A DNA stretch of 64,000 nt from a virus (lineage: Duplodnaviria > Heunggongvirae > Uroviricota > Caudoviricetes), in the IMG/VR virus record IMGVR_UViG_3300033146_003879, positions 118,990 through 182,989 of that record; one strand, given 5' to 3'. Position numbers and translations under genes: made by a program. The notes beneath the pieces were generated by a model that worked only from the letters and a program-made list of their open reading frames with translations, was not told the origin of the DNA and ran no database searches. Below, one piece after another: positions 15,201-60,462 of this stretch (positions are counted from its first letter, which is position 1; each line of letters begins with the position of its first letter).

Positions 15201-17101
15201 TTAACTGAATCAGGGTACACAGAAGATCTTCTGTTTATCAGCTCATAAAGAGCGGTAAACATCTGATCAATATACACAAGACTATCTTTTCCTGGTATTG
15301 TTGTGGTAGCCTCGTCTTGTGGTACTACTGGCCCTAACATTGTTGGAAATAGGTCTTTGTATGGCGCCGATGGGGTACCTCCCCACTCCTCTATGGCGTC
15401 GTAGGTTACGTTTGATAAGCGGGTTGCACCACCCGAAAAGAAACTTCCTCCAGACCCCGTCGACATAACGATGCTCGTCTCCCCTGTATGGAGAAAGTAG
15501 TCGAGATAATCATCGAGGTTTATTACTGTTCCATCAAGGAATGTTATCTTTTTCTCAGTAACAGTAAACATAGGTAAGAATGTGTCCTTCATGTATGCTG
15601 TACCGTCGCCAGGGTCAGGTGCACCTGTGTTGTGGTACAGGTAAGGATTGTTCTTATGGGAAGGTTTGTAGATGTCCCAAACTGGTACTTTCAGGCTTGG
15701 GTCAAACGTAGGATCTAGTTCTGTTGTTCCAGGCGCCATATTTGCTATAGCGTGTCCTAGTGATGCTGGTATGAATGCAAATTGAGCACTGGATGATGAT
15801 CCGTTTAAGTATTCGAAGTTTGTGTTTCCGGTTGAGGTTACGGTAGGGGTGTCGAACATTGATTTTTGTACCCCTTCTCTAGCAACAACAAATCCATAAG
15901 TTCCTGTATTTATGAAGTTAGCGTCGTATTTGGGGTGACCGTTTATCTCAGTGCTTGTGAGTTCGCCTGACACATCCCCTCGAGAAAACAAGAAGGGGTG
16001 GTGTCTTCCGTACGTAGGAACATCACCGTCATCAAGAGGTAGTTGATCATCAAATGAAACAGGTCTACCCTCAAACACAGGAGGAAACGCCGATGCTCCA
16101 GGGATCTCTATTCGGACACTACGTGGTTTTATTGTGGCTATGTAAGGTTTTTCTTCTCGGTTCTTCATGAATGTCATGTTGAGAGGGGTGGTCAACAAGG
16201 TGGATGGTGGTACTACCTCAGGGAATATCTTAACGTGAAGCGGGAATAAACCGTCATTAAACGTGCGTGCTGACCCAGCTGTAACAGACCCTAGTGCAGA
16301 TAACAAGTCACCTACAGTCATACTTGCAATGTCACACACAATGCGAATTGTAGTATACCTCTTTTTATTGTCAATAAGAACAGGATCCTCAACAAACGTA
16401 CCGTGCTTGTCTGCCTCAGTATTGTGCTCAACGATAATCGAGATGTTGTGATGTACTGCGGTCGTAAATATATCAGGGTTAGCACCCCCCTCATCAACGT
16501 ACAACATAAGAACTGTTTCTGCGTCGAAAGGAGATGGTTCGTCAGGTGATAGAGGTATCGCATGGTAGTATTCACCGTAACCTCCGAGCCCGTAGTTAAG
16601 AATCAGGGTGTAAGCGTCAGCTGTGTCAATAGATCCTGAAGAGTCCCAGTTACTTGCTGCCGCAAATCGAACCGGAACATATTGTAAGAGACGGCTGCCA
16701 GGAACACTTGTTCCGATAACACCAGAAAGGTCTCCCGGTTTCCATACTCGGATATTCACATCGCGGTCTTTCTTGTAGTAAGGGCTTCCGTAGGTCGCTT
16801 CCGGTGGGGGAGGAACAGCCGCAGGATGTCCCACAGCAGTTGCGCTAGGTTCACTTTGAGCGCTCATATACAGTTGGATCTTATCGAGGAACAACCTATG
16901 CTCAAGGCTTGACACCTCACTTTGGTTAATCCCATGCATTAGGCTAACCATCCGAGAATAAGCAGAACTACCGTAGAGCTCCGATTGACGAACGGGGTCA
17001 CAGTCCTTGTAAAAAATACCGCTGTTCTTAATGTTGTTCTTTTTGTAATCGCGAGCCATGAGTCTCCTCCTTGTTGTCACATCGAAATTATAGTAGAACA
17101 A
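12287..17101 (-). CDS. giant structural protein (1604 aa)
   Basis: Uninterrupted 4.8-kb ORF. First gene of the minus-strand structural operon, downstream of an AT-rich divergent control region. Confidence 0.6.
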   Translation of the reverse strand: MFYYNFDVTTRRRLMARDYKKNNIKNSGIFYKDCDPVRQSELYGSSAYSRMVSLMHGINQSEVSSLEHRLFLDKIQLYMSAQSEPSATAVGHPAAVPPPPEATYGSPYYKKDRDVNIRVWKPGDLSGVIGTSVPGSRLLQYVPVRFAAASNWDSSGSIDTADAYTLILNYGLGGYGEYYHAIPLSPDEPSPFDAETVLMLYVDEGGANPDIFTTAVHHNISIIVEHNTEADKHGTFVEDPVLIDNKKRYTTIRIVCDIASMTVGDLLSALGSVTAGSARTFNDGLFPLHVKIFPEVVPPSTLLTTPLNMTFMKNREEKPYIATIKPRSVRIEIPGASAFPPVFEGRPVSFDDQLPLDDGDVPTYGRHHPFLFSRGDVSGELTSTEINGHPKYDANFINTGTYGFVVAREGVQKSMFDTPTVTSTGNTNFEYLNGSSSSAQFAFIPASLGHAIANMAPGTTELDPTFDPSLKVPVWDIYKPSHKNNPYLYHNTGAPDPGDGTAYMKDTFLPMFTVTEKKITFLDGTVINLDDYLDYFLHTGETSIVMSTGSGGSFFSGGATRLSNVTYDAIEEWGGTPSAPYKDLFPTMLGPVVPQDEATTTIPGKDSLVYIDQMFTALYELINRRSSVYPDSVKRTELLINPETVSAVGFSIEVTDLASDLNNIHVDRWKRISPTTYTLPLIPLLLGTPSPTTPVYVGAILPTGFINIITPNAHGAEPKAYVVTDILGATKRSTYIGNVRDPGVNVGNFRSGGTIIGTNGAITTTNSGEGLPPFTPLPQQAIMRRPLPALESPEHGLVGDQFTGYSSIYSSLNLFLGGSTKRIYGGVNETKIEHTGDTATGYSIHFGDISDTISITHEPQASMHVVLSDLLSNLSMGQATTIAINDKSSGARLGGQAGDLVVDATVNSIYTTAVAGSDGTNGHDQRAFGRYNEASLLRRTVFTSAATNIDTYINVQHVLESLSDYSPPPAHDTLTIDTFTRFRTLLRKTYSTSLVQTYLKRTLNRSLPDAMVDNFTVDVDYYTDLKLSSSARGNCAKNRSVLFSAEYILALVYGISYESLTSTTYGDYITATTTTEKFYPAIESSRAATYTSAPQYDIAHIALFNPSIIATKTDATTDPTSASDTFVFNPIQLNTVPNTDTNPTSEKYRMSTYYREIDSPDSDLGSGSFAQSLGLLSKIKLAGATSTANKTKVFPFAMITLPVYAVSEVSPGVSRKYFNVDAANYIKKVTLIRSTPGVYAAGETRVDITNLYKGTERTVLDLGLTKYVADRDDSLGRNKDIVAYPPLAEAAKDYSATFIRQQYDASVQDSSGEFHVLQLADPTISSVDGTRETTLETMTMNDTLSDLSYYPDVSSPLIITRTATDIVFEDNNVLVSNPDMYTPPVPGKATLHTIAMAVSDSVLRELTFEQIAVDIKLNTPSTATDPLNLDHEIEISPINAFADLSLGISLEIDLVDDLVDVLHDHGLVLGTDPTVLSDDFTAPYSGITRAAIKVGDTAADHTQWSDAGSIPGLSVPITVSIGYLPLYFHDTDADLVPYSTIQDAIMYSADTENKFACTVNSGLLTAQNSDEFASQERTTVRPGKVVITQRMRNVKIYSTVKKGS

Positions 17102-17294: not shown

Positions 17295-17570
17295 AGTCCC
17301 CAAATCAACGTAACTACCTGATAATACTACATGCACTTGGGGACTACTCGGGGACTTACTCTGATATTCGGGGACTTATTCCTCCTTTGCAAAGTAGCAT
17401 TAGTTGTATACTTTATTTAGTATCACAAGTGATACGTTAGGTTTACTGTAGTATACAATCCAAATAATTAAACGTCTTGTGTTCGTGTTTTTGTGTATTT
17501 CTGTGCAATGCTAGTCCCCAGATTTGCCGAGTAACTCCCCGGATCTTGGAATAACTCCCCAAATTTACCC
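17295..17570. promoter_or_regulatory. divergent control region with about 7 GGGGACT / AGTCCCC repeats
   Basis: agtcccca at 17295 and 17513, ggggact x3 at 17337-17385, actcccc at 17544 and 17564. Lies between the starts of 12287..17101 (-) and 17721..20115 (+). Confidence 0.45.
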
Positions 17571-17720
17571 TTCTGTTTTTCGCCACTTTATCCTCTTGTT
17601 TATTTTTGTGTGCGGCATTTTAATTAGACGCATATTTAATCAACAAATTATTTTTAATCAACCAGTACTTCCCCTTGTTATATACCCTATAATTAGAGTG
17701 ACGTTATTTTGGAGGCATAA

Positions 17721-20115
17721 AATGCATAATGTAAAACCGTATCAAGTTAGAAGACAAGCGGATGGTGAGCTCCACCCTGTAGCTATAACGGAGAGGCTAC
17801 TCGCTGTTCGTGACAAACAGTACTCAAGCCCTGTATTATTGCTTCGAGAACAACCCTACCTGCTTGATGGAACACCTACTGTTGCTGTGACACGTGTGTT
17901 AGCAGTGAGTTCACCACTAACAGAGGTTGCTCCTACGGCCGTTGTTCCTATAGAGTCCTTTGTTGTTAGTTACACAGAAGGCATTATATACCTGAACGAG
18001 TCTGAGGTCCCTACCGGAAGTGATGTAAGTGCTGCTTTATATATAGTAGAGTATAGTGGGCTAGGTACACTCGTCAGCACAAGAGATATTCTCAGCCGAG
18101 ACGCTGATGCGTCAAACGCGAGTGACACAAATAGTGCTCTCCAGCGCTTTAACGTAACAGATTCTTACAAACTGGACCCCTCATCATATACGGCGTCTGC
18201 ACAAACAACAGCAGACTCAGTCAATGATGTCTTCTCCTTCGTCCTCTCCGGGGTATATATAACTGTTGCGCGCAATTCTACGGTCTCGTTTATGGAGATG
18301 GATAGATCCACAGCAACACTGAACGCAGTAGCAATAACATCAGACGCGATACCTAATCTAGCAGCCTCAAACCCTGCAGATATATGCATCATATCAGAGT
18401 CTGCTACTGCAATACACGACGGGCTTGGCGGCTTACACTTATTTACCTTGTCAGGAACCTCTTCCGGGACAGCGCGCCGCCTCAAAGTAACATCATTTAA
18501 ACTAGGCTTTACTCCGATAAAACTTGCGGTATTATCACCAGGGAACGACTCTATTATTGTGACATATGTCATGGGTAACGGTACTGGTGCTTATTCCACA
18601 GGGTATTTGCGCTTAACATCCGGACTTATGTTGTTTGATCAAGTAAACATAGACATAAGTAGTCACATAGATACCGGGTTTATTGATATACTCAGTGTGT
18701 CCTCAATACAAGGACCAAACACAACATTTAGTATTTTACAGAGCACCGGAGGAACAACAGTAAGCGTGACGTCGCTGTACTTCAATAGTTATATTTACGA
18801 CGCTCCTGCAGGAGAAGTTATAAGAACAGGAACCCTACCATTTTCAGGGAACATGTACTCCTTCGCCGCCGGCTACGGACCCGACGGCTCTGTTGTAGTA
18901 GCAACGTTTGCCTCATTTACTATGGGACCAAATCTCTATACTACAGCAATACACCCAGATGGAGAGTGCACTACCCTAACCTTCCCGCTGATGCCGAACG
19001 AACAGATTGTGAGCACCACCCGATCACACGGACTCTACATAGGTGTTACTCGCTACCTCGACGGCTCGGATGTGCACTTAAGAACAGCGTTATTCGACTT
19101 TGCAAATTATGAGATAAGCCCCCCTTTAGACATAAATGCATCCGTCACAATCGGTCCGGTTGCACACAGAGAGAACCTTTCTGTATTTACCTATGAATAC
19201 GGAGGCTTTGCCCAAATTATTTACTACGACAACCGCACAGCGAGTAACACGAAGTACGTCCTTGACTATGCGCGGTTCGACACAAAAAGAGACGACTGCG
19301 TACATCCTGACGGACTGCTCCAATGGGAAGGCGACGTCATTAGTGACGAGACTTACATAGACGATACAACACCAGGAGTCCAACTTACTCTGCTAACAAC
19401 ATGTAAAGACACAGAGATTGAGGCAAATTCAGCAGGAACAATCGAGGCTACCGTAACAGGAAAACAAGATGTAACAGGGGACGTCGCGAGCTTCAGAGTT
19501 ACTGCAACTATTCATAATGATGGAATGGCAACAACTATTGTAGGGACCCCAACAACAACAGTACTCGCGAGCACGGCTGGTGCTACAGGCTGGGTAGCGC
19601 GCGCATACAATGCAGGAAACTATCTTATTATCTTTGTACATGCAGACGGCTCTACAAACAACGTACACTGGTCAGCAGAAGGGTTTGTTGTTAAAACAGA
19701 ACTACCTGCAGTTTACACACCAGGAAGCCTTGCTGTATGGGAAGGAGAGACGACAACAGATGAAACTTACGTCAACGATACGACACCAGGAACAAAGTTC
19801 ACATTAGTGCCGGCATCAACAGTAGATACACTAGCGAGTGGTGAGATTGCCAACGTATCAGCTGTAGTTACTGCCGCATCTGTTTCTGGTGAAGCTGCAA
19901 GCTTTAGAATAGAAGGGACTGTGCAGTATGACGGATCCACAACAATTCTTATAGGAACACCTACCGTGTCTGTTCTCGCAGCGTCTGCCGCCGCAGTTAC
20001 ATGGAGAGCACGTGTTTACTTCGATAGCAATCAGATCGTTATTTATGGACACGGGGACGGTAGTGGCGGCGACACTATTACTTGGAACGCCAAAGGTATT
20101 CTTATTAAGTTCTAA
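17721..20115 (+). CDS. tail-fibre / receptor-binding-like protein with internal ~130-aa domain duplication
   Basis: Start at ATG 17721 is preceded by ggagg. Two C-terminal repeats (TYIDDTTPG...WSAEGFVVK and TYVNDTTPG...WNAKGILIKF). Ser/Thr/Gly-rich composition typical of fibres. Confidence 0.5.
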
Positions 20116-20163: not shown

Positions 20164-20985
20164 TTAAGGTAGATGGTAATACACACCATCTACGTCTATG
20201 TCTATAAGGGCTTCAATTCGCCCTATAACCACTCCGGTCGCTACTGGACTATACGTAACAACCTCGTATGAGTCAGAATAATTGTAATCCAGAGATGTTA
20301 CGGTAAATGATAGATTATGCCTATCCCGCAGCATATCAACTGTCCTATCACCTAGTCGGGCTGGCATGCTCACGTTCGATTCTTTATTAAGTGTAAAGTA
20401 TAATGTAAGACTACTCATATCAGACACAACTGCGAAATACATAGTAAGTATGTAGCCGGAATAACGACCTACAAGCTCACACTCCATCACAGACCCGAGT
20501 AGTAGGTCACCGTCTTTCCTTAGAACCTCTTCACAAACAACATCTGTTATAGGCACGTCCGTGTCATCCGACTCCTCAGAATCATCAGCGACAGCGTCAT
20601 CATCAGCCGACTCCTCAGAATCAACAGTCTCATCGACACCACCAGCCGACTCATCAGAATCAACAGTCTCATCGACACCATCAGCCGACTCATCAGAATC
20701 AACAGTCTCATCGACACCATCAGCCGACTCATCAGAATCAACAGTCTCATCGACACCACCAGTAGCCTCCTCTGAGTCTACATCAGCAACTTCATCAGCA
20801 ACACAGATCGAGTCAATACACTCGAGCCTTGAATCACAGGTGTTATTATCGTAGCACTTTTCATGCCATCCTCCAACATCACCTGATCCTTTCGCCGCGT
20901 CTCCACCGCAGCTAACAACAAACATGTTCATCAAAACCACCAACAAAACCACCAACCACCCCTTTCTTCTTGTAACCTTAGTCAT
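20164..20985 (-). CDS. secreted lipoprotein with Cys-rich N-domain and acidic 13-aa tandem repeats (GVDETVDSDESAD x ~5)
   Basis: Start MTKVTRRKGWLVVLLVVLMNMFVVSCGG has GGAGG 7 nt upstream. Signal peptide plus lipobox VVSC. Repeats are visible in both protein and DNA. Confidence 0.65.
   Translation of the reverse strand: MTKVTRRKGWLVVLLVVLMNMFVVSCGGDAAKGSGDVGGWHEKCYDNNTCDSRLECIDSICVADEVADVDSEEATGGVDETVDSDESADGVDETVDSDESADGVDETVDSDESAGGVDETVDSEESADDDAVADDSEESDDTDVPITDVVCEEVLRKDGDLLLGSVMECELVGRYSGYILTMYFAVVSDMSSLTLYFTLNKESNVSMPARLGDRTVDMLRDRHNLSFTVTSLDYNYSDSYEVVTYSPVATGVVIGRIEALIDIDVDGVYYHLP
20569..20763. repeat. 5 x 39-bp tandem repeat inside the lipoprotein gene
   Basis: Unit ccgactcMtcagaatcaacagtctcatcgacaccaYcag repeated head-to-tail. 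Generates spurious shadow ORFs on both strands. Confidence 0.8.
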
Positions 20986-21225
20986 AACAACCTCCTGTTT
21001 TTTAACGTGGTTGTCTCCACATTGATATATACTACACAATAAAACCAGAAGTAATGGCTCAGACTACGCTTGCCTAGGCCTGTACGTAACTTCACGAGGT
21101 CTTTCTCCTCGCACACAGACATCTCAACACCTCCTCCTTTGTTGACATACCATACATATTCTTATACCTCAAAAACGCAGTTTTTATATCAAAAAAAGAA
21201 ACCCTGCAACTTAAGTAACAGGGTA

Positions 21226-24158: not shown

Positions 24159-24499
24159 TGGTGGAGGCGGCGGGAATCGAACCCGCGTCCTAAAAACCTT
24201 CAAGATAGATACTACATGTTTAGTCCGTCTTTACTAAAATCTTCGGCGCCAACGGACAGGCCCCTCGAAGTTTCCTACGCTAAAGTTTTCGTGGCATCTC
24301 CCACATAGAAAGGATCAACCCTTAGTCTCACAGTTGTGCGCCCCAATTGGTGTCGTGAGCACCCCTCCAATAGGACGGCAGCTTATGCTGCTATGAGTTC
24401 AGTTTTTGCGTCTCTGAACGTGCCGCTTTTTACGAGGCCCGCGGCGCCTCGACATGCATCTATTCTCTCCGCGAATCCAGTCGAAACCAGGTCGCCCCC
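24159..24499 (-). ncRNA. ssrA: tmRNA (ssrA-like), about 341 nt, phage-encoded
   Basis: Minus strand reads 5' GGGGGCGACCUGGUUUCGACUGGAUUCG ... GGACGCGGGUUCGAUUCCCGCCGCCUCCACCA 3'. The 7-bp acceptor stem (GGGGGCG / CGCCUCC) carries a G3.U pair. T-arm GCGGG-UUCGAUU-CCCGC with terminal CCA. Internal putative tag frame ends ...ACU GAA CUC AUA GCA GCA UAA (TELIAA*). Confidence 0.8.
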
Positions 24500-25413: not shown

Positions 25414-25429
25414 TATCTTATACCACAAT
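25414..25429 (-). promoter_or_regulatory. recurrent promoter-like motif, copy 2
   Basis: cttataccacaat. Minus strand reads TGTGGTATAAG. Confidence 0.4.
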
Positions 25430-29992: not shown

Positions 29993-30367
29993 TTACTGAT
30001 TCTTAATGTATGTCTTGATGACTTCGAGCGGTGCGCCGCCAGAAGACGTAACGTAATAAGACGGGGACCATAATTTCTTGTGCCGTCTTAATTCCGGGTA
30101 TAAAGCTCTGAGCTTTTTGCTTGTTGGCCCCTTAACTGCCTGCACTATAGAGGAGATTGACTCTGTCGAAGGGTATTCAATAAGGAGGTGGACGTGATCT
30201 AAATCGCCGTTACATTCCTCAAGCGTGATCCCCTTCTTCTTGAACGCCTGTCTTGCATAATATGCGAAGTCTCCAAGTATTCTCGGAGAAAGCACCTTTC
30301 TCCTATACTTCGTTACCAATACGAGGTGTGCATGCAAGCTGCTTATGTTTGTTCTTGACTTCCTCAT
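29993..30367 (-). CDS. tnpA: IS200/IS605 Y1 (HUH) transposase TnpA
   Basis: LHAHLVLVTKYRRKVL ... DHVHLLIEYP (HuH) ... LWSPSYYVTS (catalytic Tyr). Confidence 0.85.
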   Translation of the reverse strand: MRKSRTNISSLHAHLVLVTKYRRKVLSPRILGDFAYYARQAFKKKGITLEECNGDLDHVHLLIEYPSTESISSIVQAVKGPTSKKLRALYPELRRHKKLWSPSYYVTSSGGAPLEVIKTYIKNQ

Positions 30368-30389
30368 AACCCTAAGTATACTCTTTTGT

Positions 30390-31508
30390 ATGAAAGTGTC
30401 AAGAGCATATAAATACCGCCTTTACCCTACGCGAGAACAAGAGATTAAGTTGTCTCAGTTCGTTGGAAACAATAGATATCTCTGGAACTTCGTTCTATCC
30501 GCTCTCGAAGGCAAGAAGTGGGACCGATTCGCTGTTTCCAAACAACTTCCTTCACTTAAGTCTGAAATACCATTCCTTAAAGAATCTCCGTCTCAAGCGT
30601 TTCAACAATTGTTAATTGATATGGATGCTGCATTTAAGAGCTTCTTTCGGAAGAAACACGGATATCCGAAGTTTAAGAAACGCGGTATGCACGACTCTTT
30701 TAGAATACCGGTTGTGAAGTCCCCTGAATCTATAAACAAGAATAGCTGCGTCTGGATACCAAAATTGGGTTTTGTGGAACTGCGTTTGTCGCGTGAGGTG
30801 AGAGGAGAAGCGAAGTCTATCACTGTGTCTCGGAGAGCGGGAAAATGGTTTGTCTCAATATTGACGAAAAGCGAGATGCAGGAAACAGGCGGAAAGACAG
30901 GAAATAGTGTAGGAATTGATCTCGGCGTTAAACACTTCGCGACAACGTCGGGCGGAAAGCATATACATGCTCCAGAGGAAAGAGTGCGCTATTTAGAGAA
31001 GAGAATAGAGCGCATGCAGAGGAAAGTCAGTAGAGCGAAGAAAGGATCAAGCAACAGAAGCAAGTTGCGTCTTAAATTAAGTAGACTCCACTTAACTCTC
31101 GCGAATGTGAAAGAAGACTTCTTGCACAAGGTGAGCACACAGTTAATCAAGAACCACGATTTACTTGTGCTCGAAGACCTTGGTGTAAAGGAGATGACAG
31201 AAGCAGGAGCGAGAAAAGCGAAGTTAAATAGAGCAATCTTGCGTCAAGGTTGGTATAAATTTAGGACTTTACTTGAGTATAAGAGTATGTGGTATGGCTG
31301 TGCCGTAGTGTTCGTCCCGCCTCAATTCACGAGTCAGCGCTGTAGCGAATGCGGGAATATAAACGCAGCAAACAGAAAGACACAATCGTCATTTAAATGC
31401 CTTTCGTGTGGCCATACTGAAAACGCTGATATAAACGCAGCTAAGAACATTTTCACCGTCGGGCAGACGGGTAGAGCCTTTGGAGACGCCGCGCTAGCGG
31501 GTCGATGA
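30390..31508 (+). CDS. tnpB: TnpB (OrfB, RuvC-like, RNA-guided nuclease family)
   Basis: N-terminus KVSRAYKYRLYPTREQ, GIDLGVKHFATTSGG (RuvC-I), C-terminal zinc finger CSECG...CLSCGH, DINAAKNI. Confidence 0.85.
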   Translation: MKVSRAYKYRLYPTREQEIKLSQFVGNNRYLWNFVLSALEGKKWDRFAVSKQLPSLKSEIPFLKESPSQAFQQLLIDMDAAFKSFFRKKHGYPKFKKRGMHDSFRIPVVKSPESINKNSCVWIPKLGFVELRLSREVRGEAKSITVSRRAGKWFVSILTKSEMQETGGKTGNSVGIDLGVKHFATTSGGKHIHAPEERVRYLEKRIERMQRKVSRAKKGSSNRSKLRLKLSRLHLTLANVKEDFLHKVSTQLIKNHDLLVLEDLGVKEMTEAGARKAKLNRAILRQGWYKFRTLLEYKSMWYGCAVVFVPPQFTSQRCSECGNINAANRKTQSSFKCLSCGHTENADINAAKNIFTVGQTGRAFGDAALAGR

Positions 31509-31526
31509 ATTAGGAATCCCGGTCTT

Positions 31527-32180
31527 TCAAGGCCGGGAGGATGTCAAGACGTTGAAACCCATCTCAATCAACTTTACGAGATGTTCTGGGCTGTGCCCGA
31601 CATTAAGTGTATAGGGGCCTCCACCGACAGTGTAATCCAACATAACGCTGGAGTCTCCCTCATTGAAGCGTAGTTTACCAAACTTCGCAATCATGATTCC
31701 TGGGAACCAACTCTCAATAATCTTTTTCTCATGCTCTTTGATGTCGGACAGGAGCCTACTGCCCATTTTAACCCTACAAGGTTCACCGCAGTTTACCATT
31801 CTATCCTCCCCAAATACATCGCATATTTCATACACGATTTGATTACTACCGTTAAACCGAGACACAGGAAGCTTTCTAGCCACCATCTTATCCTGGTTAT
31901 GCCACACAGAACCTCTTGGAGACAGTGCTACAAATCGCGTTTCCCAGTCTTTAACCTTATCAAGGTAGTGTTTATAGTGCTCCGGGGAAATATCATATGA
32001 GATATCAGTTATTTCATTGCTTGCTGCTATATCAGACAGTGCCTGCATAGCGACTTCATGCTGCCCTACATTCCCGACAGGAATATAGATTGGACTAAAG
32101 TGCTTTTTGTCTTCCCAGTCTTTCTGGGAGACTCTCTTAATCGATTCGATTTGTTCTTTGCTGAGACTTTCTTTAACCAC
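31527..32180 (-). CDS. hypothetical protein (217 aa) next to the RNA ligase
   Basis: ORF. No clear phosphoesterase or kinase motifs seen. Confidence 0.4.
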   Translation of the reverse strand: MVKESLSKEQIESIKRVSQKDWEDKKHFSPIYIPVGNVGQHEVAMQALSDIAASNEITDISYDISPEHYKHYLDKVKDWETRFVALSPRGSVWHNQDKMVARKLPVSRFNGSNQIVYEICDVFGEDRMVNCGEPCRVKMGSRLLSDIKEHEKKIIESWFPGIMIAKFGKLRFNEGDSSVMLDYTVGGGPYTLNVGHSPEHLVKLIEMGFNVLTSSRP

Positions 32181-52311: not shown

Positions 52312-52505
52312 TACGCCGCCCTCCTTTATAAAAATTAAAGTACCTCATGCAGGTTGACCCTCTCCTGGTTGGGAGGGGTCGGTGTCCTGCACTAACCGTA
52401 TTAACTGACGGCTAACAGCGCGATAGATTAACTGCTATCACTGGTGATGCTTTCGCTGACGGAGTCACTTACCCGGGCCCTTTACGTCTAGCCGTAGACG
52501 GGTTA

Positions 52506-52676
52506 TTATTTTACATCCAGTATGCTCTGGAGTGTTGGGCGAACGCCCCGGGCATGCTGAGCAGCATGGTAGATCCCACGACCTTTAGGAAGGCCGTACC
52601 TATTACGTACAACAGGTAAGCTGTTAGAAGTGGGGCTTGCACGCGGGGTTTCCCCCGTCATAAGTTCATAATACAT
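52506..52676 (-). CDS. small ORF (56 aa) with a strong RBS inside a long leader
   Basis: GGAGG + 7 nt + ATG. Leader and start are near-identical over about 50 nt to those of gene 49519..50367. Falls below the 60-aa ORF-track cutoff. Confidence 0.3.
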   Translation of the reverse strand: MYYELMTGETPRASPTSNSLPVVRNRYGLPKGRGIYHAAQHARGVRPTLQSILDVK

Positions 52677-52790
52677 AATAGTACCTCCTAAGTACCTTCC
52701 CGGCGACCAACCCGGATAATAGTCATCGCACCAACCACACGGTCAATACTTATAGGAGGTATGCTATTACATGCGCAAATCTCCTATCAT

Positions 52791-52806
52791 ATTCTTATAC
52801 CACAGA
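52791..52806 (-). promoter_or_regulatory. recurrent promoter-like motif, copy 11
   Basis: catattcttataccacagaatctgaatttttacact. Confidence 0.45.
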
Positions 52807-53513: not shown

Positions 53514-54041
53514 AACTACCTCCTGCGGTATGAAAAATAATATCTTAGTAATGTATTTTGTTAAGAAACATAAGGGGCGCCGCGCAGGTTTCTGTACAGA
53601 TCCGAAAGGATCCATGCTCCACCTGCGCATGATTCAGTTTCCTTCGCCGGAACGCACGTTCCGGTTCAGATACGTACAGCATGTCGGCCGAACCACACCG
53701 TTTGCTGCACGAGAAGTAAGTAGAGGTGCACCCCTAATTACTTCTTTGATTTTTCAGAGCTCGCATTACATTCCTGCTCCCTAGGGTTTACTCCCTGACC
53801 TACCGCCCGATTGTTTTTTATAGCAGTATTCACCGGTAGGTGCCCTCTGCAACCGCACTCCAAGGTACGGAGGTCCTTAATTTATATTGCGGTTCGACCC
53901 TGCCCGCTAACTCTGTTGCCCTCTGAGAGGTGTCGGCTGAGTTTACATGCGCCTTGTGTGTGCTTGGTGGTTAACCTAACGTCTCGCCCAGACGCTACGT
54001 ATCACTACGTAGTAAAGAATCACGTGAAGATACTTTATCTA

Positions 54042-54057
54042 ACTCTTATACCACAAA
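54042..54057 (-). promoter_or_regulatory. recurrent promoter-like motif, copy 12 (a TATAAT for the + gene follows at about 54073)
   Basis: ctaactcttataccacaaacctcagatttttcacactacTATAAT. Confidence 0.4.
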
Positions 54058-54114
54058 CCTCAGATTTTTCACACTACTATAATTACCATGTACCACTCGA
54101 TGGAGGGAGCCGTG

Positions 54115-54594
54115 GATAAGGAAGCAAAGAAGCTAACGACGTACGCTCGTAAACACATAGCAGACAAGAACTTCGCAGGTAAAAAGAAATCATATCCTAT
54201 ACATGATATATCCCATGCAAGATCTGCTCTATCTTACGGATCACGTTTCCTGCCGAAGGATGAGTACAGTAAGCTGCGGACACGCGTTCACAAGAAGTAT
54301 CCAAGTCTCGCTAAAAAGAGTAATCTCACAAGCTACGTTGGGAGCATGTTGAAGGAATCTGCGTATGACCCGCTCCCACAAGAGCTCGGTCACTTCGTGG
54401 GGAGAAAGGCAGCCCGCGATCAAGATGCTCGATACAGTTACGGCGGAGCAGCGACAGCAGCTCTCGGAACAGCTGCTCTTACAAGTCTCTTCGGTGAAAA
54501 CAAGTGGAAGGCACTGCGTAACGGAACGCTCGCTATCTTCCCAGGAATGTTTGCAGGTGAAGCTGCGAAGCATTATGTAAATAACAAAAAATAG
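54115..54594 (+). CDS. hypothetical protein (GTG start after GGAGGG; ORF track extends to 54088)
   Basis: ORF with an RBS. Confidence 0.4.
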   Translation, partial: DKEAKKLTTYARKHIADKNFAGKKKSYPIHDISHARSALSYGSRFLPKDEYSKLRTRVHKKYPSLAKKSNLTSYVGSMLKESAYDPLPQELGHFVGRKAARDQDARYSYGGAATAALGTAALTSLFGENKWKALRNGTLAIFPGMFAGEAAKHYVNNKK

Positions 54595-54787
54595 TACAAA
54601 CAGGCTGCATAATTCCAAAGGGAGACCCCAAGGCCCTCCTTATTTCAAGTTACTTATAATTCATCGAGCTATAACTGCGCGCCCTCTGTCTAGTGCCTTT
54701 GATATCTGGGTCAAAAGGCGCTGCTGCATGTTATCCCACACTATTTAATAAATTACATCTGCGCAGGATGAAGTGAACACAAGAAAA

Positions 54788-54848
54788 AATAAAACAACAA
54801 AACAACAAAACAACAAAGCAATAAAGCAATAAAGCAATAAAACAACAT
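54788..54848. repeat. short tandem repeats (aacaaaac)x3 followed by (caataaag)x3
   Basis: aaaacaacaaaacaacaaaacaacaaagcaataaagcaataaagcaataaaa, in a 1.1-kb non-coding stretch. Confidence 0.8.
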
Positions 54849-55648
54849 CGGCGCAGTCCCCTGAGTGTTCGGGGTACGTAGCGCCATGGTAGCATTTTTA
54901 ACCTTTCGGCCATTACACACACCCACATTTCTGTAGGTAGCCACCAGAAACACAGCAGATAAGTTCTGCCGCAAACTCCTGCGCTGCTCATCATAGGTTT
55001 CCTCTGCTAGCAACCCCTTTGGTAGGGTTCAACGACTCCCGCCGTTTATTGTCCAACATTTTCCGCCTCACAGTTCACCTTGTGGGATTCCTGCGTCATC
55101 ATTTTTCAGATGAATAAGTTTCTTTTCAGAATCAGCGCCTACACCGCTTTTTACCATTTGTTTTCTTGATTAATAGTCAAGTAGTTGATTTCGAGTCGCC
55201 GGTGTAGCCGATAACCTAGATGCCTTTTGAGCACCCGTGCGGTCCTACGCCTCGTTGTTTCAAGTTAGACCGGGTAAGGTCCTGAAACGGGAATCTTTTC
55301 TTGAACCGCGTGATTTCGCACGTGGCCCAAAAGTCCTTACGTAAAGCCCTTGCTCCTCAGCTCGAACAATACACAGTGCAACCCCCTATTGCCTCTCAGC
55401 TCACCTACCATACTACTGATAGGCATTACCACTTCTGCGCCGCCAGTTGGCCTTGCATTCCCGTGATAACGGTAGTTGTACTCCTCTCTACGGTCACGGT
55501 TTAACCCGCGCGCATCCGTGGTTCACTTTCCACTAAATGCCTTTTAGGCTCATCACTGAGCTTACCCTAACGACAAGAAGGCTGCCGTCGCAAAGATATA
55601 CGGTAGATGTTTCTAACTAGGTTAGCATACAAACATATACCTTTGCAA

Positions 55649-55664
55649 CTACTTATACCAGGTT
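55649..55664 (-). promoter_or_regulatory. recurrent promoter-like motif, copy 13 (divergent variant: cttataccaggttttactgtgagttttacact)
   Basis: Oriented towards the 54600-55645 non-coding stretch. Confidence 0.35.
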
Positions 55665-55847
55665 TTACTGTGAGTTTTACACTTATTTCTCAGCTAGTCT
55701 CTGTTTCTGTCTCGAAGTTAGATTTAATACCACTTAGCCATCTATCCCGTGTCTTTGTAGACACCATAAAATCGTGATACCAATCTGCTGCAGTATCGTT
55801 GCCCCACGGCTTCGGTCCCCATGTTCCCATATTAAACCTCCAGCTTA

Positions 55848-56432
55848 CTAATTGTAATTGTACCCAATCCAACGGGCAATAGTGATAAGTGAAGCACGCT
55901 TCACCTTGCCGTGATCATCAACGTAATCCGGCTCTAGCTTAGGAAGCAGCCTTTCAAGGTCTTCTCTATTTCTACTTACGTGCACTGAGTCAACATCCCG
56001 CATAACGTAGCCAAAGTAGTCATCAACTATTGTATAAAATACTTTTGCCGCCGTAAATTTTATATTTGATATTATCCCAGTATGAATGCCAAACTTCAAG
56101 TTACTATGCTCATTCAAGTTATCTGCCATAGGTATGTAATTCACGCTCTCGCCTAGATTCAGGTTGCTTATGAATGTAGGTCTCACCTCATCAGGCGGAC
56201 GCTCGTTAAGTAACTCCATTGAACGCTGGTATAGAGGTCCAAGCATGTACCCGCCCTCGTCAACAAGTGATGCTTGGGGGAGATCTTCGCTGAATAGTAC
56301 TGACGTGATAGGTCCTGTCGCCGCCTTCCCGCTTCCGTTATTCTTTGTGCGAACAATGTCGCCGATAGCAACTTTAGAAGAGAACATCTCTTCGGCAAAC
56401 TTTAAGAGTCTGTTAGTCATCACTTCCCCCAT
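55848..56432 (-). CDS. hypothetical protein, paralogue family C member 1
   Basis: N-terminal TNRLLKFAEEMFSSKVAIGD is shared with the next two ORFs. Confidence 0.45.
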   Translation of the reverse strand: MGEVMTNRLLKFAEEMFSSKVAIGDIVRTKNNGSGKAATGPITSVLFSEDLPQASLVDEGGYMLGPLYQRSMELLNERPPDEVRPTFISNLNLGESVNYIPMADNLNEHSNLKFGIHTGIISNIKFTAAKVFYTIVDDYFGYVMRDVDSVHVSRNREDLERLLPKLEPDYVDDHGKVKRASLITIARWIGYNYN

Positions 56433-58224: not shown

Positions 58225-59322
58225 TTACTTATTAGACTTACGTCTATTACAGCTCTTACAAAGCACCTGGCAGTTAGCGGAGATGGTTTTCCCACCTTCG
58301 CTCCACGGTGTAATGTGGTCAGCCTCCATGTCCTCTATGATAAACTTCTTCTTGCACATAGAACATTTCTTTTTCTGTTTCTCATACACAGCTATTTTCA
58401 TAGCAGGTGTGAACGCACGGATTGATAAGTAGCGCTCATCTCCGGTAAGAACGTAGGAGTACATGCCGCGTTTTGCTGTGACGTCATCATCAAGTATTAG
58501 TCTAGCGATCTCGACTTCGAGGGCATCGGTGTCATAGGTGTTATCCTTGAACGCATTGTACAGGTAGCCCCACTCAACACCCTTCATGAATTTTGTTCTG
58601 CCCTTATTGTATTTCACTGGAAAAGTATCCTCTACCCATGTCACTACCGATTGAAAATACCTCCACAGTGCTCCTGCGTTTTGTTCTCCTTGGTGTTTTG
58701 CCATGTACGCTTCGATATTATCATCCGATATCCATCGAATCGCAGTCTCGAGATAATCTTGCCGAATAGCGGATCCAGTCAGGTACACACTTCCGATACG
58801 GTGTGCTGTGCACCCGGTCTTGCTGAAGCGCGCTTTAGCAGCAGTTACCCACGGCCCAGAATAAACAGCGTTGCGCAACTCTTGATCAGTAAGCTTCATA
58901 CCTGAGATATTAACCGTTTTAAACCACTCAAGCTTGTCGCTGTCCCCACCCTCACAGAAGTACACCATTAACTCGTAATTAAGAACCTCTTCTTTCTTAT
59001 CGGATGGGAGGTTGCTAAACAACATACCCTCAACAGAGAAGTCATCGTTAACATACTGGCATATAGACAACGTGCGCTGCTGACCATCTATTATCTCGAA
59101 TGATTCTTCTGAATTCACTGCCCAGTAGATAGCACTGAGCGGGAACCCTTTCATAACAGTGTCAATAACAGCAGCGCGCTGCTTATCATTATACACAAAC
59201 TCTCTCTGATAAGGAGGCCTGATGTCAAGTTTTCCATCTAACCCAACAACACCCCCTTCGTCAGCATCCTTGAATCCATGAACAACATCTCTTACTGTAA
59301 CTCTTTTTAATTCAACTCGCAC
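58225..59322 (-). CDS. DUF262 (ParB-like, DGQQR) + HNH nuclease fusion, GmrSD / type-IV-restriction-like
   Basis: N-terminal EIIDGQQRTLSI. C-terminal CSMCKKKF...ADHITPWSEGGKT...NCQVLCKSCNRRKSN (HNH). Confidence 0.65.
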   Translation of the reverse strand: MRVELKRVTVRDVVHGFKDADEGGVVGLDGKLDIRPPYQREFVYNDKQRAAVIDTVMKGFPLSAIYWAVNSEESFEIIDGQQRTLSICQYVNDDFSVEGMLFSNLPSDKKEEVLNYELMVYFCEGGDSDKLEWFKTVNISGMKLTDQELRNAVYSGPWVTAAKARFSKTGCTAHRIGSVYLTGSAIRQDYLETAIRWISDDNIEAYMAKHQGEQNAGALWRYFQSVVTWVEDTFPVKYNKGRTKFMKGVEWGYLYNAFKDNTYDTDALEVEIARLILDDDVTAKRGMYSYVLTGDERYLSIRAFTPAMKIAVYEKQKKKCSMCKKKFIIEDMEADHITPWSEGGKTISANCQVLCKSCNRRKSNK

Positions 59323-60415
59323 TTGATTCTCCTTTTCTTCTTATTAAAACTCTAGCGTACGGGACAACTACTACCTCTTCTGAGACCATATACAAGTCTC
59401 CGTCCACCGCTCCTCTTTTTTGAACATCCCTACGGTACTCCCTGTGCTCTACCGTATAGGGGCGTACCCCTATTTCCGTACCAGATCCTGCTATCCCTAA
59501 CCCAATAACCTCAAATTGTTCAGGATTATACTTAGATAGGAACGTCACAGGGACACCCATGACACCGTCATAGTCCTCTGGTATGTCAGAAACCTTGTCG
59601 ATATTTATAGCATCGTAGTTATAATATCTTGTATACAGCAGAGGATCATATTTACGGTACATTAATAGGTCTACGTGCCTCTTTGTAATATCCAGGTTTG
59701 TAAACCAGCAAATGTTTCCAAACTTTCGTAATTCGTAATCTGAACCGCCTCTCTCCCGCGCACCGCCAACAGGAGAACGGAAACTCATAGCACCACTTCT
59801 ATACCCTAACCATACTCTGTCTTCCTTTATTAATGCAAATATCGCTTTATACGTCAACGCATTCATGTTACCTATAATCAGGAACTGTTTGTTATTTGAA
59901 ACAAGCGCATGCATGAACTCTCTGAACAAAGAGAATGGAGGATTTGTAACAACTACGTCAGCCTCACGCATTAAAGCTAAGCACTCTTCACTGCGAAAAT
60001 CACCATCACCAGCAAGAGCGGTAGCCACATTACCATCATGCAGTAACAGGTGTTCGACGTCAAATATGTTTACCGACCCGTCACCGGTGTAATCGCGTAC
60101 CTCTGTGATCTCAATCTTTATAGGTGCTCCCCGGTCACTCTCTGCTATACCTTGCATATCGCTAATAGAAACCTGATCCCCGATTATAGGAGAGCTGACG
60201 TAACTTGTAGCTATAAGCTTCTTCAGCCCGAGTATATTAAATTGCATAGCGAAGTACTTGAAAAAGTTACTCTCGAAAGGGTCGTCTGCATTACAGTACA
60301 CAGTTTTCCCTCTAAAGTAATGCTTATAGTGCTTTAGCTCCTTCTCAATATCTGATAACTGAGTGTAGAACTCGTCATTCTTATTCTGCTTCGCATTCCG
60401 TAAACTAGCGTTTGC
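59312..60415 (-). CDS. N6-adenine DNA methyltransferase (NPPF motif IV)
   Basis: NDEFYTQ near the N-terminus. VVVTNPPFS. Size and layout fit gamma-class adenine MTases. Confidence 0.65.
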   Translation of the reverse strand, partial: ANASLRNAKQNKNDEFYTQLSDIEKELKHYKHYFRGKTVYCNADDPFESNFFKYFAMQFNILGLKKLIATSYVSSPIIGDQVSISDMQGIAESDRGAPIKIEITEVRDYTGDGSVNIFDVEHLLLHDGNVATALAGDGDFRSEECLALMREADVVVTNPPFSLFREFMHALVSNNKQFLIIGNMNALTYKAIFALIKEDRVWLGYRSGAMSFRSPVGGARERGGSDYELRKFGNICWFTNLDITKRHVDLLMYRKYDPLLYTRYYNYDAINIDKVSDIPEDYDGVMGVPVTFLSKYNPEQFEVIGLGIAGSGTEIGVRPYTVEHREYRRDVQKRGAVDGDLYMVSEEVVVVPYARVLIRRKGESSAS

Positions 60416-60462
60416 CATAATTAACACATCCTCAATAAAATGTTGTATAAGATACCATCCAC

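Follow-up and report, generated by a model that had tools for sequence, protein, structure and literature searches.

A gene-free stretch of a phage-like genome probably encodes a divergent member of the GOLLD class of large non-coding RNAs

What is encoded at 54595-55689 of a 64,000-nt window of viral DNA, where no gene is apparent? The window is the whole stretch of DNA analysed here, taken from IMG/VR virus record IMGVR_UViG_3300033146_003879, and all coordinates are window coordinates. A preliminary description, made from the letters of the sequence, had called the stretch gene-free, noted tandem octamers and a divergent promoter variant, and proposed either a large non-coding RNA (ncRNA) or a contingency locus. 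Its gene-free character was borne out. The stretch is non-coding and lies between the ends of two genes:

54088-54594, plus strand: left flanking gene, 168 aa, ending at 54594 and convergent with the RNA gene described below.
Ending at 55690, minus strand: right flanking gene, a small DUF4259-like ORF.

The ORFs inside it are no longer than 87 aa, and their codon usage is that of non-coding sequence, at −0.39 to +0.04 bits/codon, compared with +0.15 to +0.43 for neighbouring genes outside the training set. Pfam searches of these internal ORFs found no credible family, the single match, at 0.005, lying below the cutoff. We conclude that the stretch very probably holds a minus-strand gene for a large ncRNA, a divergent member of the GOLLD class.

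GOLLD is a giant phage-encoded RNA that self-assembles into an RNA-only cage (Weinberg et al. 2009; cryo-EM of env-38 by Kretsch et al. 2025, PMC12286853). GOLLDs increase in lytic growth and have suspected ties to tRNA and translation. To our knowledge, they are among very few natural RNAs that form protein-free cages bigger than the ribosome.

The assignment begins with a match to the Rfam covariance model for the family:

54858..55252, minus strand: conserved GOLLD 3′ domain (P13-P27); Rfam RF02032, model positions 1-416 of 416, 63.3 bits.

The match has a bias of 0.0 and full model coverage, with an E-value of 2.9e-15 when 4.2 kb was searched and 4.4e-14 when the whole window was searched with all 4227 families. 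The suggestion of a large ncRNA is thereby upheld. The Rfam check that the preliminary description had proposed does identify GOLLD, but in E-value mode alone: at gathering thresholds a tmRNA is all that is recovered in the window, and the score falls short of the 150-bit gathering threshold of the family. GOLLD is the sole significant sub-threshold match in the window, the others all having E >0.1. Nine reference GOLLDs score 142-216 bits on RF02032, each of them above the candidate. The 150-bit cut-off is conservative, because the GOLLD of Erythrobacter phage L02, which is accepted and part of the Kretsch 2025 alignment, scores 141.9 bits and falls under it.

All 14 helices of the 3′ domain are represented, and canonical pairing is possible for 77 of the 98 consensus pairs, a count made on an alignment that was itself fitted by the covariance model. 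Both partners differ from the consensus in 39 of the 77, so that helices are largely retained by compensatory changes. The weak helices are P18 (2/5 pairs) and P19 (3/4 pairs), and the GOLLD loop-E motif GAGUAA reads GAGGAA. The consensus fold has an energy of −41.6 kcal/mol, versus +67 ± 10 for shuffled sequences, and an unconstrained minimum free energy fold recovers 47 of the 77 pairs. Comparison with eight phage GOLLD loci and env-38 by nhmmer and blastn revealed no primary-sequence similarity. Aligned by MAFFT to known 3′ domains, the candidate sequence could not be placed reliably.

Four elements of this domain correspond to parts of the RNA with described roles in GOLLD assemblies:

55224..55230, minus strand: L14 loop UCAAAAG, aligned with the same, invariant sequence in the model; top match of sub-domain model R2 (see below).
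55138..55199, minus strand: linker J13/15, 62 nt, A-rich, placed by the covariance-model alignment; no nested tRNA (ARAGORN).
55069..55095, minus strand: P17 hairpin, whose loop is the L20 of the cryo-EM papers; 7/9 pairs form.
55013..55046, minus strand: P21a (ACGGC-GGGA-GUCGU) and P21b (AACCCU-ACCAAA-GGGGUU); 9/9 consensus pairs form.

The L20-J13/15 interaction is the covarying GOLLD ‘pseudoknot’, which has proved to be a kissing pair between molecules. L20 in the candidate reads CACAA (55084-55080), within which A55083-C55082 is able to pair with its proposed partner in the linker, G55154-U55153, provided that the covariance-model alignment of the single-stranded junction is shifted by 1 nt. 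The dinucleotides involved are GC/GC in eight phage GOLLDs, UC/GA in env-38 and AC/GU here. The J13/15 linker is disordered in env-38, where it occupies the interior of the cage; elsewhere in the family a tRNA may sit in it. The conserved A-rich L14 loop region is GCUCAAAAGGC at 55233-55223, aligned to the invariant loop. In env-38 the adenosines of L14 act as A-minor donors in intermolecular bridge B6 (PMC12286853 supplement), and the same role of L14 in assemblies is also described in PMC12990946. By homology with the members solved by cryo-EM, the 14-mer of env-38 and the 12-mer of S. agalactiae (PMC12286853, PMC12990946), the RNA would self-assemble as a dihedral cage or ring, its short linker facing inward. 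Both contacts made inside one ring, the L14 loop and the 2-bp L20-J13/15 pair, appear from their sequences to be kept.

In env-38, L21a (G656:C657) and L21b (G675:C676) form symmetric kissing loops that join two half-shells (PMC12286853). Residues were mapped onto env-38 with region-specific offsets, because its sequence, extracted from a PDF, comprised 816 of 833 nt with 17 dropouts. In the candidate these loops are replaced by GGGA and ACCAAA, neither of which contains a self-complementary dinucleotide; a different subunit count, or a different junction of the two halves, is therefore likely.

Upstream of the 3′ domain lie two further elements of the predicted gene:

55652..55682, minus strand: promoter-like element of the RNA, with GTGTAAAA (55682-55675), a 14-nt spacer and the extended −10 TGGTATAAG (55660-55652).
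55253..55647, minus strand: 5′ domain, ~395 nt, lineage-specific; folds better than 100/100 shuffles, z −2.77.

The extended −10 TGGTATAAG occurs 14 times in the window, always on the minus strand, against 0.56 copies expected. Its 13th copy, at 55660-55652, is directed into 54595-55689 on the same strand as the RNA. Aligned promoter copies have the consensus GTGTAAAA-N12-TGGTATAAGAAtATG. The 13th is a variant because its −35-like GTGTAAAA lies 14 nt upstream and not the usual 12, confirming the divergent promoter, pointing in from the right, that had been noted. By its position, transcription would start at about 55645. The 5′ domain has no coding potential, and we found no sequence similarity between it and the 5′ regions of env-38 and eight phage GOLLDs; the 5′ domain of GOLLD is known to vary (PMC12286853, PMC12990946). 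Since the 395-nt 5′ domain starts at the promoter copy, the distance from promoter to P27 gives an RNA of about 790 nt, both ends being predicted. The fold z-score over the whole 790 nt is −3.88. A length of about 790-800 nt would fit published GOLLDs, which measure 700-833 nt.

GOLLDs are customarily linked to tRNA islands, and here no tRNA was found in the 64-kb window by either ARAGORN or Rfam. The preliminary description had examined a ‘T-arm-like’ segment, gggttcaacgactccc, and rejected it as a tRNA; its reverse complement makes up GOLLD hairpins P21a/P21b. A tRNA or tmRNA identity for 54595-55690 as a whole was also ruled out, with no ARAGORN or Rfam tRNA-model match. The sole translation-related RNA in the window is the tmRNA, 30 kb from the candidate. 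The surroundings, part of a 183-kb contig, include, besides the tmRNA, genes for an RNA ligase, an NAD ligase, GroES and TnpB and the recurrent promoter, and most proteins are ORFans, circumstantial evidence for a phage-like genomic context. A tblastn search of the phage collection with the 1604-aa ORF found no homologue. Seven large ORFs were compared with PHROG families and none matched; an RNA-ligase ORF does match one.

Relatives of the locus were sought widely. Neither a blastn search for distant matches with 54400-55900 nor megablast with the 40-64 kb region gave a match among 50,697 phage records. No related loci were reached in IMG/VR through the 194-aa and 168-aa neighbour proteins; beyond their own record, homologue searches with the flanking proteins returned only unrelated proteins that have a 70-aa N-terminal domain in common. 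Three DNA-pattern scans of viral contigs gave 0, 0 and 11 matches, the 11 being chance coding matches; two scans of metagenome contigs gave 0 and 8, the 8 by chance, and one scan of genome contigs gave 5, all by chance. Since no relatives were found, there is no lineage-specific covariation for the candidate RNA.

Could the locus be a decaying relic, a GOLLD homologue whose RNA has ceased to fold or assemble functionally? The low bit score, the loss of the L21a/L21b kissing loops, the weakening of P18 and P19, the U to G change in loop E, the missing tRNA context and the low-complexity repeat expanded at the 3′ end would all suit such a reading. We nevertheless consider it improbable. The RNA keeps 79% of consensus pairs, half of them by double changes, which would not be maintained under drift, and it folds significantly better than shuffled sequences. 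It has also retained a dedicated promoter copy, the L14 loop and L20-J13/15 complementarity, and loss of P21b is already known from the functional, assembling GOLLD of S. agalactiae.

The call depends mainly on one covariance model below its curated threshold, whose A-rich linker might attract A-rich sequence, and the match might be due to chance. The stretch would then be a structured RNA unrelated to GOLLD, or a long spacer, untranslated, that separates convergent units. Sub-domain covariance models built solely from eight published phage GOLLDs bear on this. The R3 model (J13/15-P17) has its top match in the window at 55154-55067, full length, with 16.4 bits and E about 0.009 (runner-up 7.4 bits), in agreement with the RF02032 alignment in coordinates and register. 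The top match of R2 (P13-P14), at 55235-55219, is the L14 hairpin, but its E-value alone is 1.5, and R1 (P24-P27, the 3′-terminal part) did not detect the candidate locus. Two of the three are therefore not significant; against this, the only significant match of R3 and the best of R2 both fall where RF02032 places them. Together with the whole-window E-value of 4e-14, reached without bias over the full model while every remaining sub-threshold match in the window has E >0.1, this makes a chance match very improbable.

At the other end of the GOLLD-class RNA lie a putative terminator, the octamers and a remnant of spacer:

54846..54888, minus strand: terminator-like hairpin that extends P27 (54873-54859) via GGCGC/GCGCC; −19.3 kcal/mol, z −2.8.
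54779..54847, no strand assigned: octamer tandem array; TRF period 8, 8.8 copies, 87% matches, score 75-89.
54595..54778, no strand assigned: leftover spacer from the RNA to the stop codon of 54088-54594(+); unstructured, z +0.15 to +0.9.

The hairpin is followed directly by UUGUUUUA (6 U in 8) and competes with the 3′ strand of a consensus helix at 54885-54880. No convincing terminator at the RNA 3′ end emerged from a simple scan, which did not call this hairpin. The predicted transcript, starting near 55645 on the minus strand downstream of its own promoter copy, would on this modelled structure terminate at the hairpin, running into the U-rich octamers. On the RNA strand the units of the array are GUUGUUUU once, AUUGCUUU three times, GUUGUUUU three times and AUUUUUUC, that is, (R-UUG-Y-UUU) x8, forming a U-rich 3′ trailer. 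The trailer, assessed over 54595-54880, is unstructured (z +1.57). Such a tail is found at none of eight known GOLLD loci (62% U in the candidate versus 20-33%). The octamers are most simply explained as a trailer generated by slippage that supplies the U-tract of the terminator. In the spacer, the best Rfam match was no better than E 9.8, no ORF has a coding signal, and a hairpin near 54621-54641 is unstable on both strands.

The tandem octamers of the preliminary description are thus real, as confirmed by TRF, but its proposal of a contingency locus is unsupported. Under that proposal, gain or loss of octamers would switch a neighbouring gene, and the array is indeed a true tandem repeat of 8 nt, almost perfect and of a type prone to slippage. 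It lies, however, 3′ of the last conserved RNA hairpin and of the convergent gene, and so 3′ of both convergent units. Because the array is outside promoter elements, not falling between a −35 and a −10, and outside any ORF with a coding signal, changes in copy number would not affect spacing relevant to expression. A period of 8 within an untranslated trailer alters no reading frame, and the trailer, being unstructured, offers nothing to disrupt. We regard phase variation at this locus as extremely improbable.

The statement that no ORF in the stretch has a ribosome-binding site does not strictly hold, as the 87-aa ORF at 54731-54994(-) has GAGGA 7 nt 5′ of its ATG; this GAGGA coincides with the conserved GOLLD ‘GAGuAA’ position. 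There is next to no chance that the stretch conceals a protein gene with an unusual start, to which this Shine-Dalgarno-like motif might point, or a replication or packaging site marked by repeats and hairpins, as origins can be by gene-free AT-rich repeats: the ORF has the lowest coding score of the region (−0.39 bits/codon), no Pfam match and a translated octamer repeat for half of its length, GC skew has no inflection at 54595-55689, and the repeats are a simple microsatellite and not spaced iterons.

The candidate is a divergent member of an already known class. Like other GOLLDs (RF02032, env-38), it would be a large ncRNA, with a predicted length of ~0.8 kb, borne by a phage-like element; the 3′ half covers P13-P27 end to end with the helices kept, it has the invariant L14 loop, an A-rich unstructured linker after P13 and the 2-nt complementarity of L20 and J13/15, and the 5′ half appears to be variable and folded separately. 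It differs from the nine reference GOLLDs in its score (63 versus 142-216 bits) and the absence of shared primary sequence, and further in having no tRNA adjoining it or in its linker, in its loop-E sequence GAGGAA, and in its U-rich octamer tail and putative phage promoter of its own. The self-complementary GC with which the L21a and L21b loops of env-38 kiss between half-shells is missing.

The GOLLD of S. agalactiae, compared here by its published description and not by sequence, is a 700-nt RNA forming a dodecamer that lacks P21b and several 5′ helices and still assembles (PMC12990946). Like the candidate it deviates in the P21 region, where the family varies, as it does in subunit number. 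In S. agalactiae, however, an L21-L21″ kissing loop joins the two planes (PMC12990946). Since neither L21 loop of the candidate can self-pair, to judge from their sequences a different inter-plane contact would be needed, for example one involving the GGGA tetraloop.

The phage GOLLDs named for comparison are those of phiCbK, Mesorhizobium Cp1R7A-A1, DSS3P8, MD18, Vibrio PG07 and 70E35.6, and mycobacteriophage PegLeg. GOLLDs of large tailed phages resemble the candidate in residing in big genomes (81-216 kb), in gene-free stretches often filled with spurious small ORFs, and that of phiCbK has a terminator after its 3′ end. Unlike the candidate, all lie in tRNA islands, with a tmRNA within about 1 kb in four of eight and a linker tRNA in five of eight. 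ROOL, another large and ornate RNA associated with phages, also builds a homo-oligomeric nanocage, but is unrelated to GOLLD in sequence and fold; it gave no Rfam match at E up to 1 in the whole window.

A bolder reading would make the candidate the founding example of a separate GOLLD subclass, with a new 5′ domain, independence of tRNA islands, its own phage promoter, a GNRA tetraloop and an A-rich loop in place of the L21 kissing loops, assembly with another number of subunits or as an open ring, and a length-variable U-rich tail that is functional, for example as a determinant of the 3′ end or of turnover. We consider this rather unlikely, if conceivable.

The candidate GOLLD keeps its core fold without detectable sequence similarity, which points to L14 and L20-J13/15 as the indispensable contacts and to L21a and L21b as replaceable ones. 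It also breaks the customary link of GOLLD to tRNA islands. The Rfam threshold of 150 bits hides genuine GOLLD members in novel phages, and standard annotation misses this one. The minus-strand segment at about 54840-55647 offers a concrete construct for studying how changes in loops set the stoichiometry of the cage.

Run at its curated thresholds, Rfam gave no match in 54595-55689. In E-value mode, the model of the giant phage RNA class GOLLD (RF02032, covering the conserved 3′ domain, P13-P27) aligned over its full length (model positions 1-416) with minus-strand 55252-54858 and scored 63.3 bits. Its E-value was 2.9e-15 in a search of 4.2 kb and 4.4e-14 when the whole window was searched with all 4227 families, and the remaining Rfam matches below threshold in the window all had E > 0.1. 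This bears out the large ncRNA that the preliminary description had put forward as a candidate. In the parsed alignment 77 of 98 consensus pairs are canonical, 39 of the 77 being changed on both sides relative to the consensus, and all 14 consensus helices have counterparts, the weak ones being P18 (2/5 pairs) and P19 (3/4). Threading the consensus structure on the sequence gave −41.6 kcal/mol, against +67 ± 10 for shuffles, and the unconstrained MFE fold recovers 47 of the 77 pairs.

For comparison, we retrieved eight of the phage GOLLDs whose accessions and coordinates Kretsch et al. 2025 (PMC12286853) tabulate in their supplement. These score 142-216 bits on RF02032, so the present locus is much more divergent; one accepted GOLLD also falls under the Rfam cut-off of 150 bits. 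Neither nhmmer nor blastn detected similarity between the region and the eight loci or env-38, a GOLLD solved by cryo-EM. Three sub-domain covariance models, built from the eight phage sequences alone, were then run over the entire window without filters. The model of J13/15-P17 (R3) gave a sole significant match, full length, at 55154-55067 (−) (16.4 bits, E ~0.009; next 7.4 bits). The top match of the P13-P14 model (R2) fell on the L14 hairpin (55235-55219) with E 1.5, and the P24-P27 model (R1) did not recover the locus. A chance match to the GOLLD model is unlikely, given the low E-value and the independent R3 match at the same coordinates. Judged from these alignments, homology to the GOLLD 3′ domain, as a distant member, is well supported, and 54595-55689 very probably represents a new, strongly divergent member of this known class that standard thresholds overlook.

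Features of the putative GOLLD locus
54088-54594, plus: 168-aa gene, its stop codon bordering 54595-55689 on the left
55690-55830, minus: small DUF4259-like ORF, its stop codon bordering 54595-55689 on the right
55682-55675 and 55660-55652, minus: GTGTAAAA and TGGTATAAG, promoter copy of the RNA (motif match)
395 nt after the start at ~55645 (predicted from sequence), minus: 5′ region, folding better than all shuffles (z −2.77)
55252-54858, minus: GOLLD 3′ domain, 395 nt (RF02032 match)
55199-55138, minus: linker after P13, short and A-rich, without a tRNA
54873-54859, minus: last GOLLD hairpin, P27 (RF02032 alignment)

What defines the family is the combination of a conserved 3′ domain with a variable 5′ one (PMC12286853, PMC12990946). 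The whole 790 nt folds with z −3.88, and its size is in keeping with env-38 (833 nt; PMC12286853) and the S. agalactiae GOLLD (700 nt; PMC12990946).

The window has 14 exact copies of the motif TGGTATAAG where 0.56 would be expected, every one of them on the minus strand:
7161, 25425, 29903, 37831, 43793, 46590, 48028, 48390, 49244, 50472, 52802, 54053, 55660, 60474

In most copies, (G/C)TG(T/C)AAAA lies 12 nt upstream of the motif, which is followed by AAtATG. The 13th (55660-55652) is directed into the stretch, with its GTGTAAAA box 14 nt upstream rather than the usual 12, and is thus the inward-pointing divergent variant noted earlier. A decaying GOLLD relic is unlikely: the helices are maintained by compensatory changes, the folding is significant and a dedicated promoter is present. 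Elsewhere, the copies at 25425, 29903 and 37831 have T-rich sequence upstream instead, which may be a sign of two promoter classes. The copy at 52802-52794 (−) heads a 476-nt stretch (within 52312-52802) whose folding surpasses that of every shuffle (z −3.17) and which has no Rfam match. Codon usage of its only ORF (52506-52676), preceded by GGAGG, is non-coding (−0.06 bits/codon), and the stretch may be either another structured RNA or a long leader. The copy at 54053-54045 (−) is followed, within 53631-54053, by ~410 nt lacking a convincing ORF ahead of a 136-aa gene; this part has only a slight folding advantage over shuffles (z −1.63).

At the 3′ end, an alternative GGCGC/GCGCC pairing downstream of P27 extends it to a hairpin at 54888-54846 (−19.3 kcal/mol, z −2.8), directly followed by the first repeat unit, UUGUUUUA. 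The tandem octamers reported earlier are real: Tandem Repeats Finder places an array at 54779-54847 (period 8, 8.8 copies, 87% matches). On the RNA strand it forms a U-rich trailer (62% U, against 20-33% downstream of the eight known GOLLDs) without structure of its own (z +1.57). We infer that the RNA ends in a terminator-like structure and that slippage has lengthened its U-tract; a simple terminator scan made no call there. The suggestion that repeat-number variation makes this a contingency locus finds no support, since both convergent units have the array on their 3′ side.

As first described, the stretch is gene-free. Its longest ORF has 87 aa, no ORF inside it has a credible Pfam match, and they score −0.39 to +0.04 bits/codon under a log-odds model of codon usage, for which 20 long ORFs from the window served as training set, against +0.15 to +0.43 for neighbouring genes outside that set. 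The claim that none has an RBS holds apart from 54731-54994 (−), which carries an SD-like GAGGA yet has the lowest coding score of all. A protein-coding gene or replication origin is unsupported, judging by codon usage, Pfam and the lack of a skew inflection.

GOLLD RNAs form protein-free dihedral cages by cryo-EM, with 14 subunits in env-38 (PMC12286853) and 12 in S. agalactiae (PMC12990946), in which 3′ domains build the rings and 5′ domains the caps (PMC12286853, PMC12990946). Residues of env-38 were mapped through local sequence context and published interaction tables (PMC12286853); the PDF-derived env-38 sequence is 17 nt short, and region-specific offsets were used. At 55230-55224 the sequence conserves the UCAAAAG of loop L14, which in env-38 is the A-minor donor for bridge B6 (PMC12286853). 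Bridge B7, a 2-bp kissing contact of L20 with J13/15, can form between AC (55083-55082) and GU (55154-55153), with a 1-nt shift from the covariance-model alignment of the single-stranded junction. The eight phage GOLLDs all have GC/GC as this pair, and env-38 has UC/GA; AC/GU, as aligned here, is a third Watson-Crick combination at a covarying position. In env-38, self-complementary GC dinucleotides in L21a and L21b link the two half-shells (bridges B8 and B9; PMC12286853), whereas here these loops are a GGGA tetraloop and ACCAAA, neither capable of self-pairing. Differences in the L21/P21 region accompany different stoichiometries; the S. agalactiae GOLLD, for example, lacks P21b (PMC12990946). 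By analogy, the best reading is that the RNA would multimerise through the conserved in-plane contacts, with its two halves joined differently, or its subunit number different, from known GOLLDs. Confidence in where the RNA starts and stops, in a terminator role for the repeats and in this mode of assembly is lower than in the identification.

Other features of the window
24159-24499, minus: phage-borne tmRNA (173.6 bits, tag AKTELIAA*)
30345-31508, plus: IS605-type TnpB gene (Pfam OrfB_IS605 and Cas12f1-like TNB domains)
58225-60427, minus: EcoRI-like adenine methyltransferase (Pfam E 1.9e-127) and GmrSD-N/HNH endonuclease fusion, overlapping by a few bases
4-4761 (+), 12287-17101 (−), 17524-20115 (+), 9929-11794 (−): very large ORFs of 621-1604 aa, no Pfam/PHROG match

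Each of the eight reference loci is part of a tRNA island; in five the linker itself contains a tRNA, and four have a tmRNA within ~1 kb (phiCbK, DSS3P8, PegLeg and MD18; L001, L003, L007 and L008). Here, in contrast, ARAGORN and Rfam found no tRNA in the 64 kb, in agreement with the earlier rejection of one, and only the tmRNA, 30 kb away. The GOLLD-tmRNA association across phages may be worth a systematic count. In two published records (L006, 464-1304; L007, 1285-1428), small 'hypothetical protein' CDSs fill the region just upstream of the 3′ domain, whether annotated or found by Rfam, and are probably spurious calls within the GOLLD 5′ domain.

Neighbouring proteins had no homologues among 5.8 billion clusters outside the 183-kb source contig, the large ORFs tested matched no PHROG or Pfam family, and tblastn of the 1604-aa ORF against 50,697 phage genomes gave no match. 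Blastn, protein look-ups and DNA-pattern scans in collections of viral, metagenome and genome contigs likewise found no relatives of the RNA or its flanking genes. Besides TnpB, the methylase and the GmrSD/HNH protein, an RNA ligase and GroES are recognisable, and the NAD ligase shares no more than 40% identity with phage ligases. By these searches the element is highly novel and almost wholly ORFan; its source is most likely a large phage, on circumstantial grounds. The methyltransferase/GmrSD-N-HNH pair sits 2.5 kb upstream of the GOLLD promoter. Rfam also gives a weak HgcC-family match (24.4 bits, E 0.16) at 31483-31560 (+), overlapping the 3′ end of the TnpB gene; it is probably the omega-RNA of that gene. 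A 39-nt tandem repeat at 20564-20762 (5.1 copies, 92% matches) is a coding repeat inside a 291-aa ORF (20164-21039, −), unrelated to GOLLD.

GOLLDs are phage-encoded and increase in expression during lytic growth, and a connection with tRNAs and ribosomes has been proposed (PMC12286853). Standard Rfam thresholds overlook 55252-54858 (−), which is not a new kind of element but a useful outlier of the GOLLD family.
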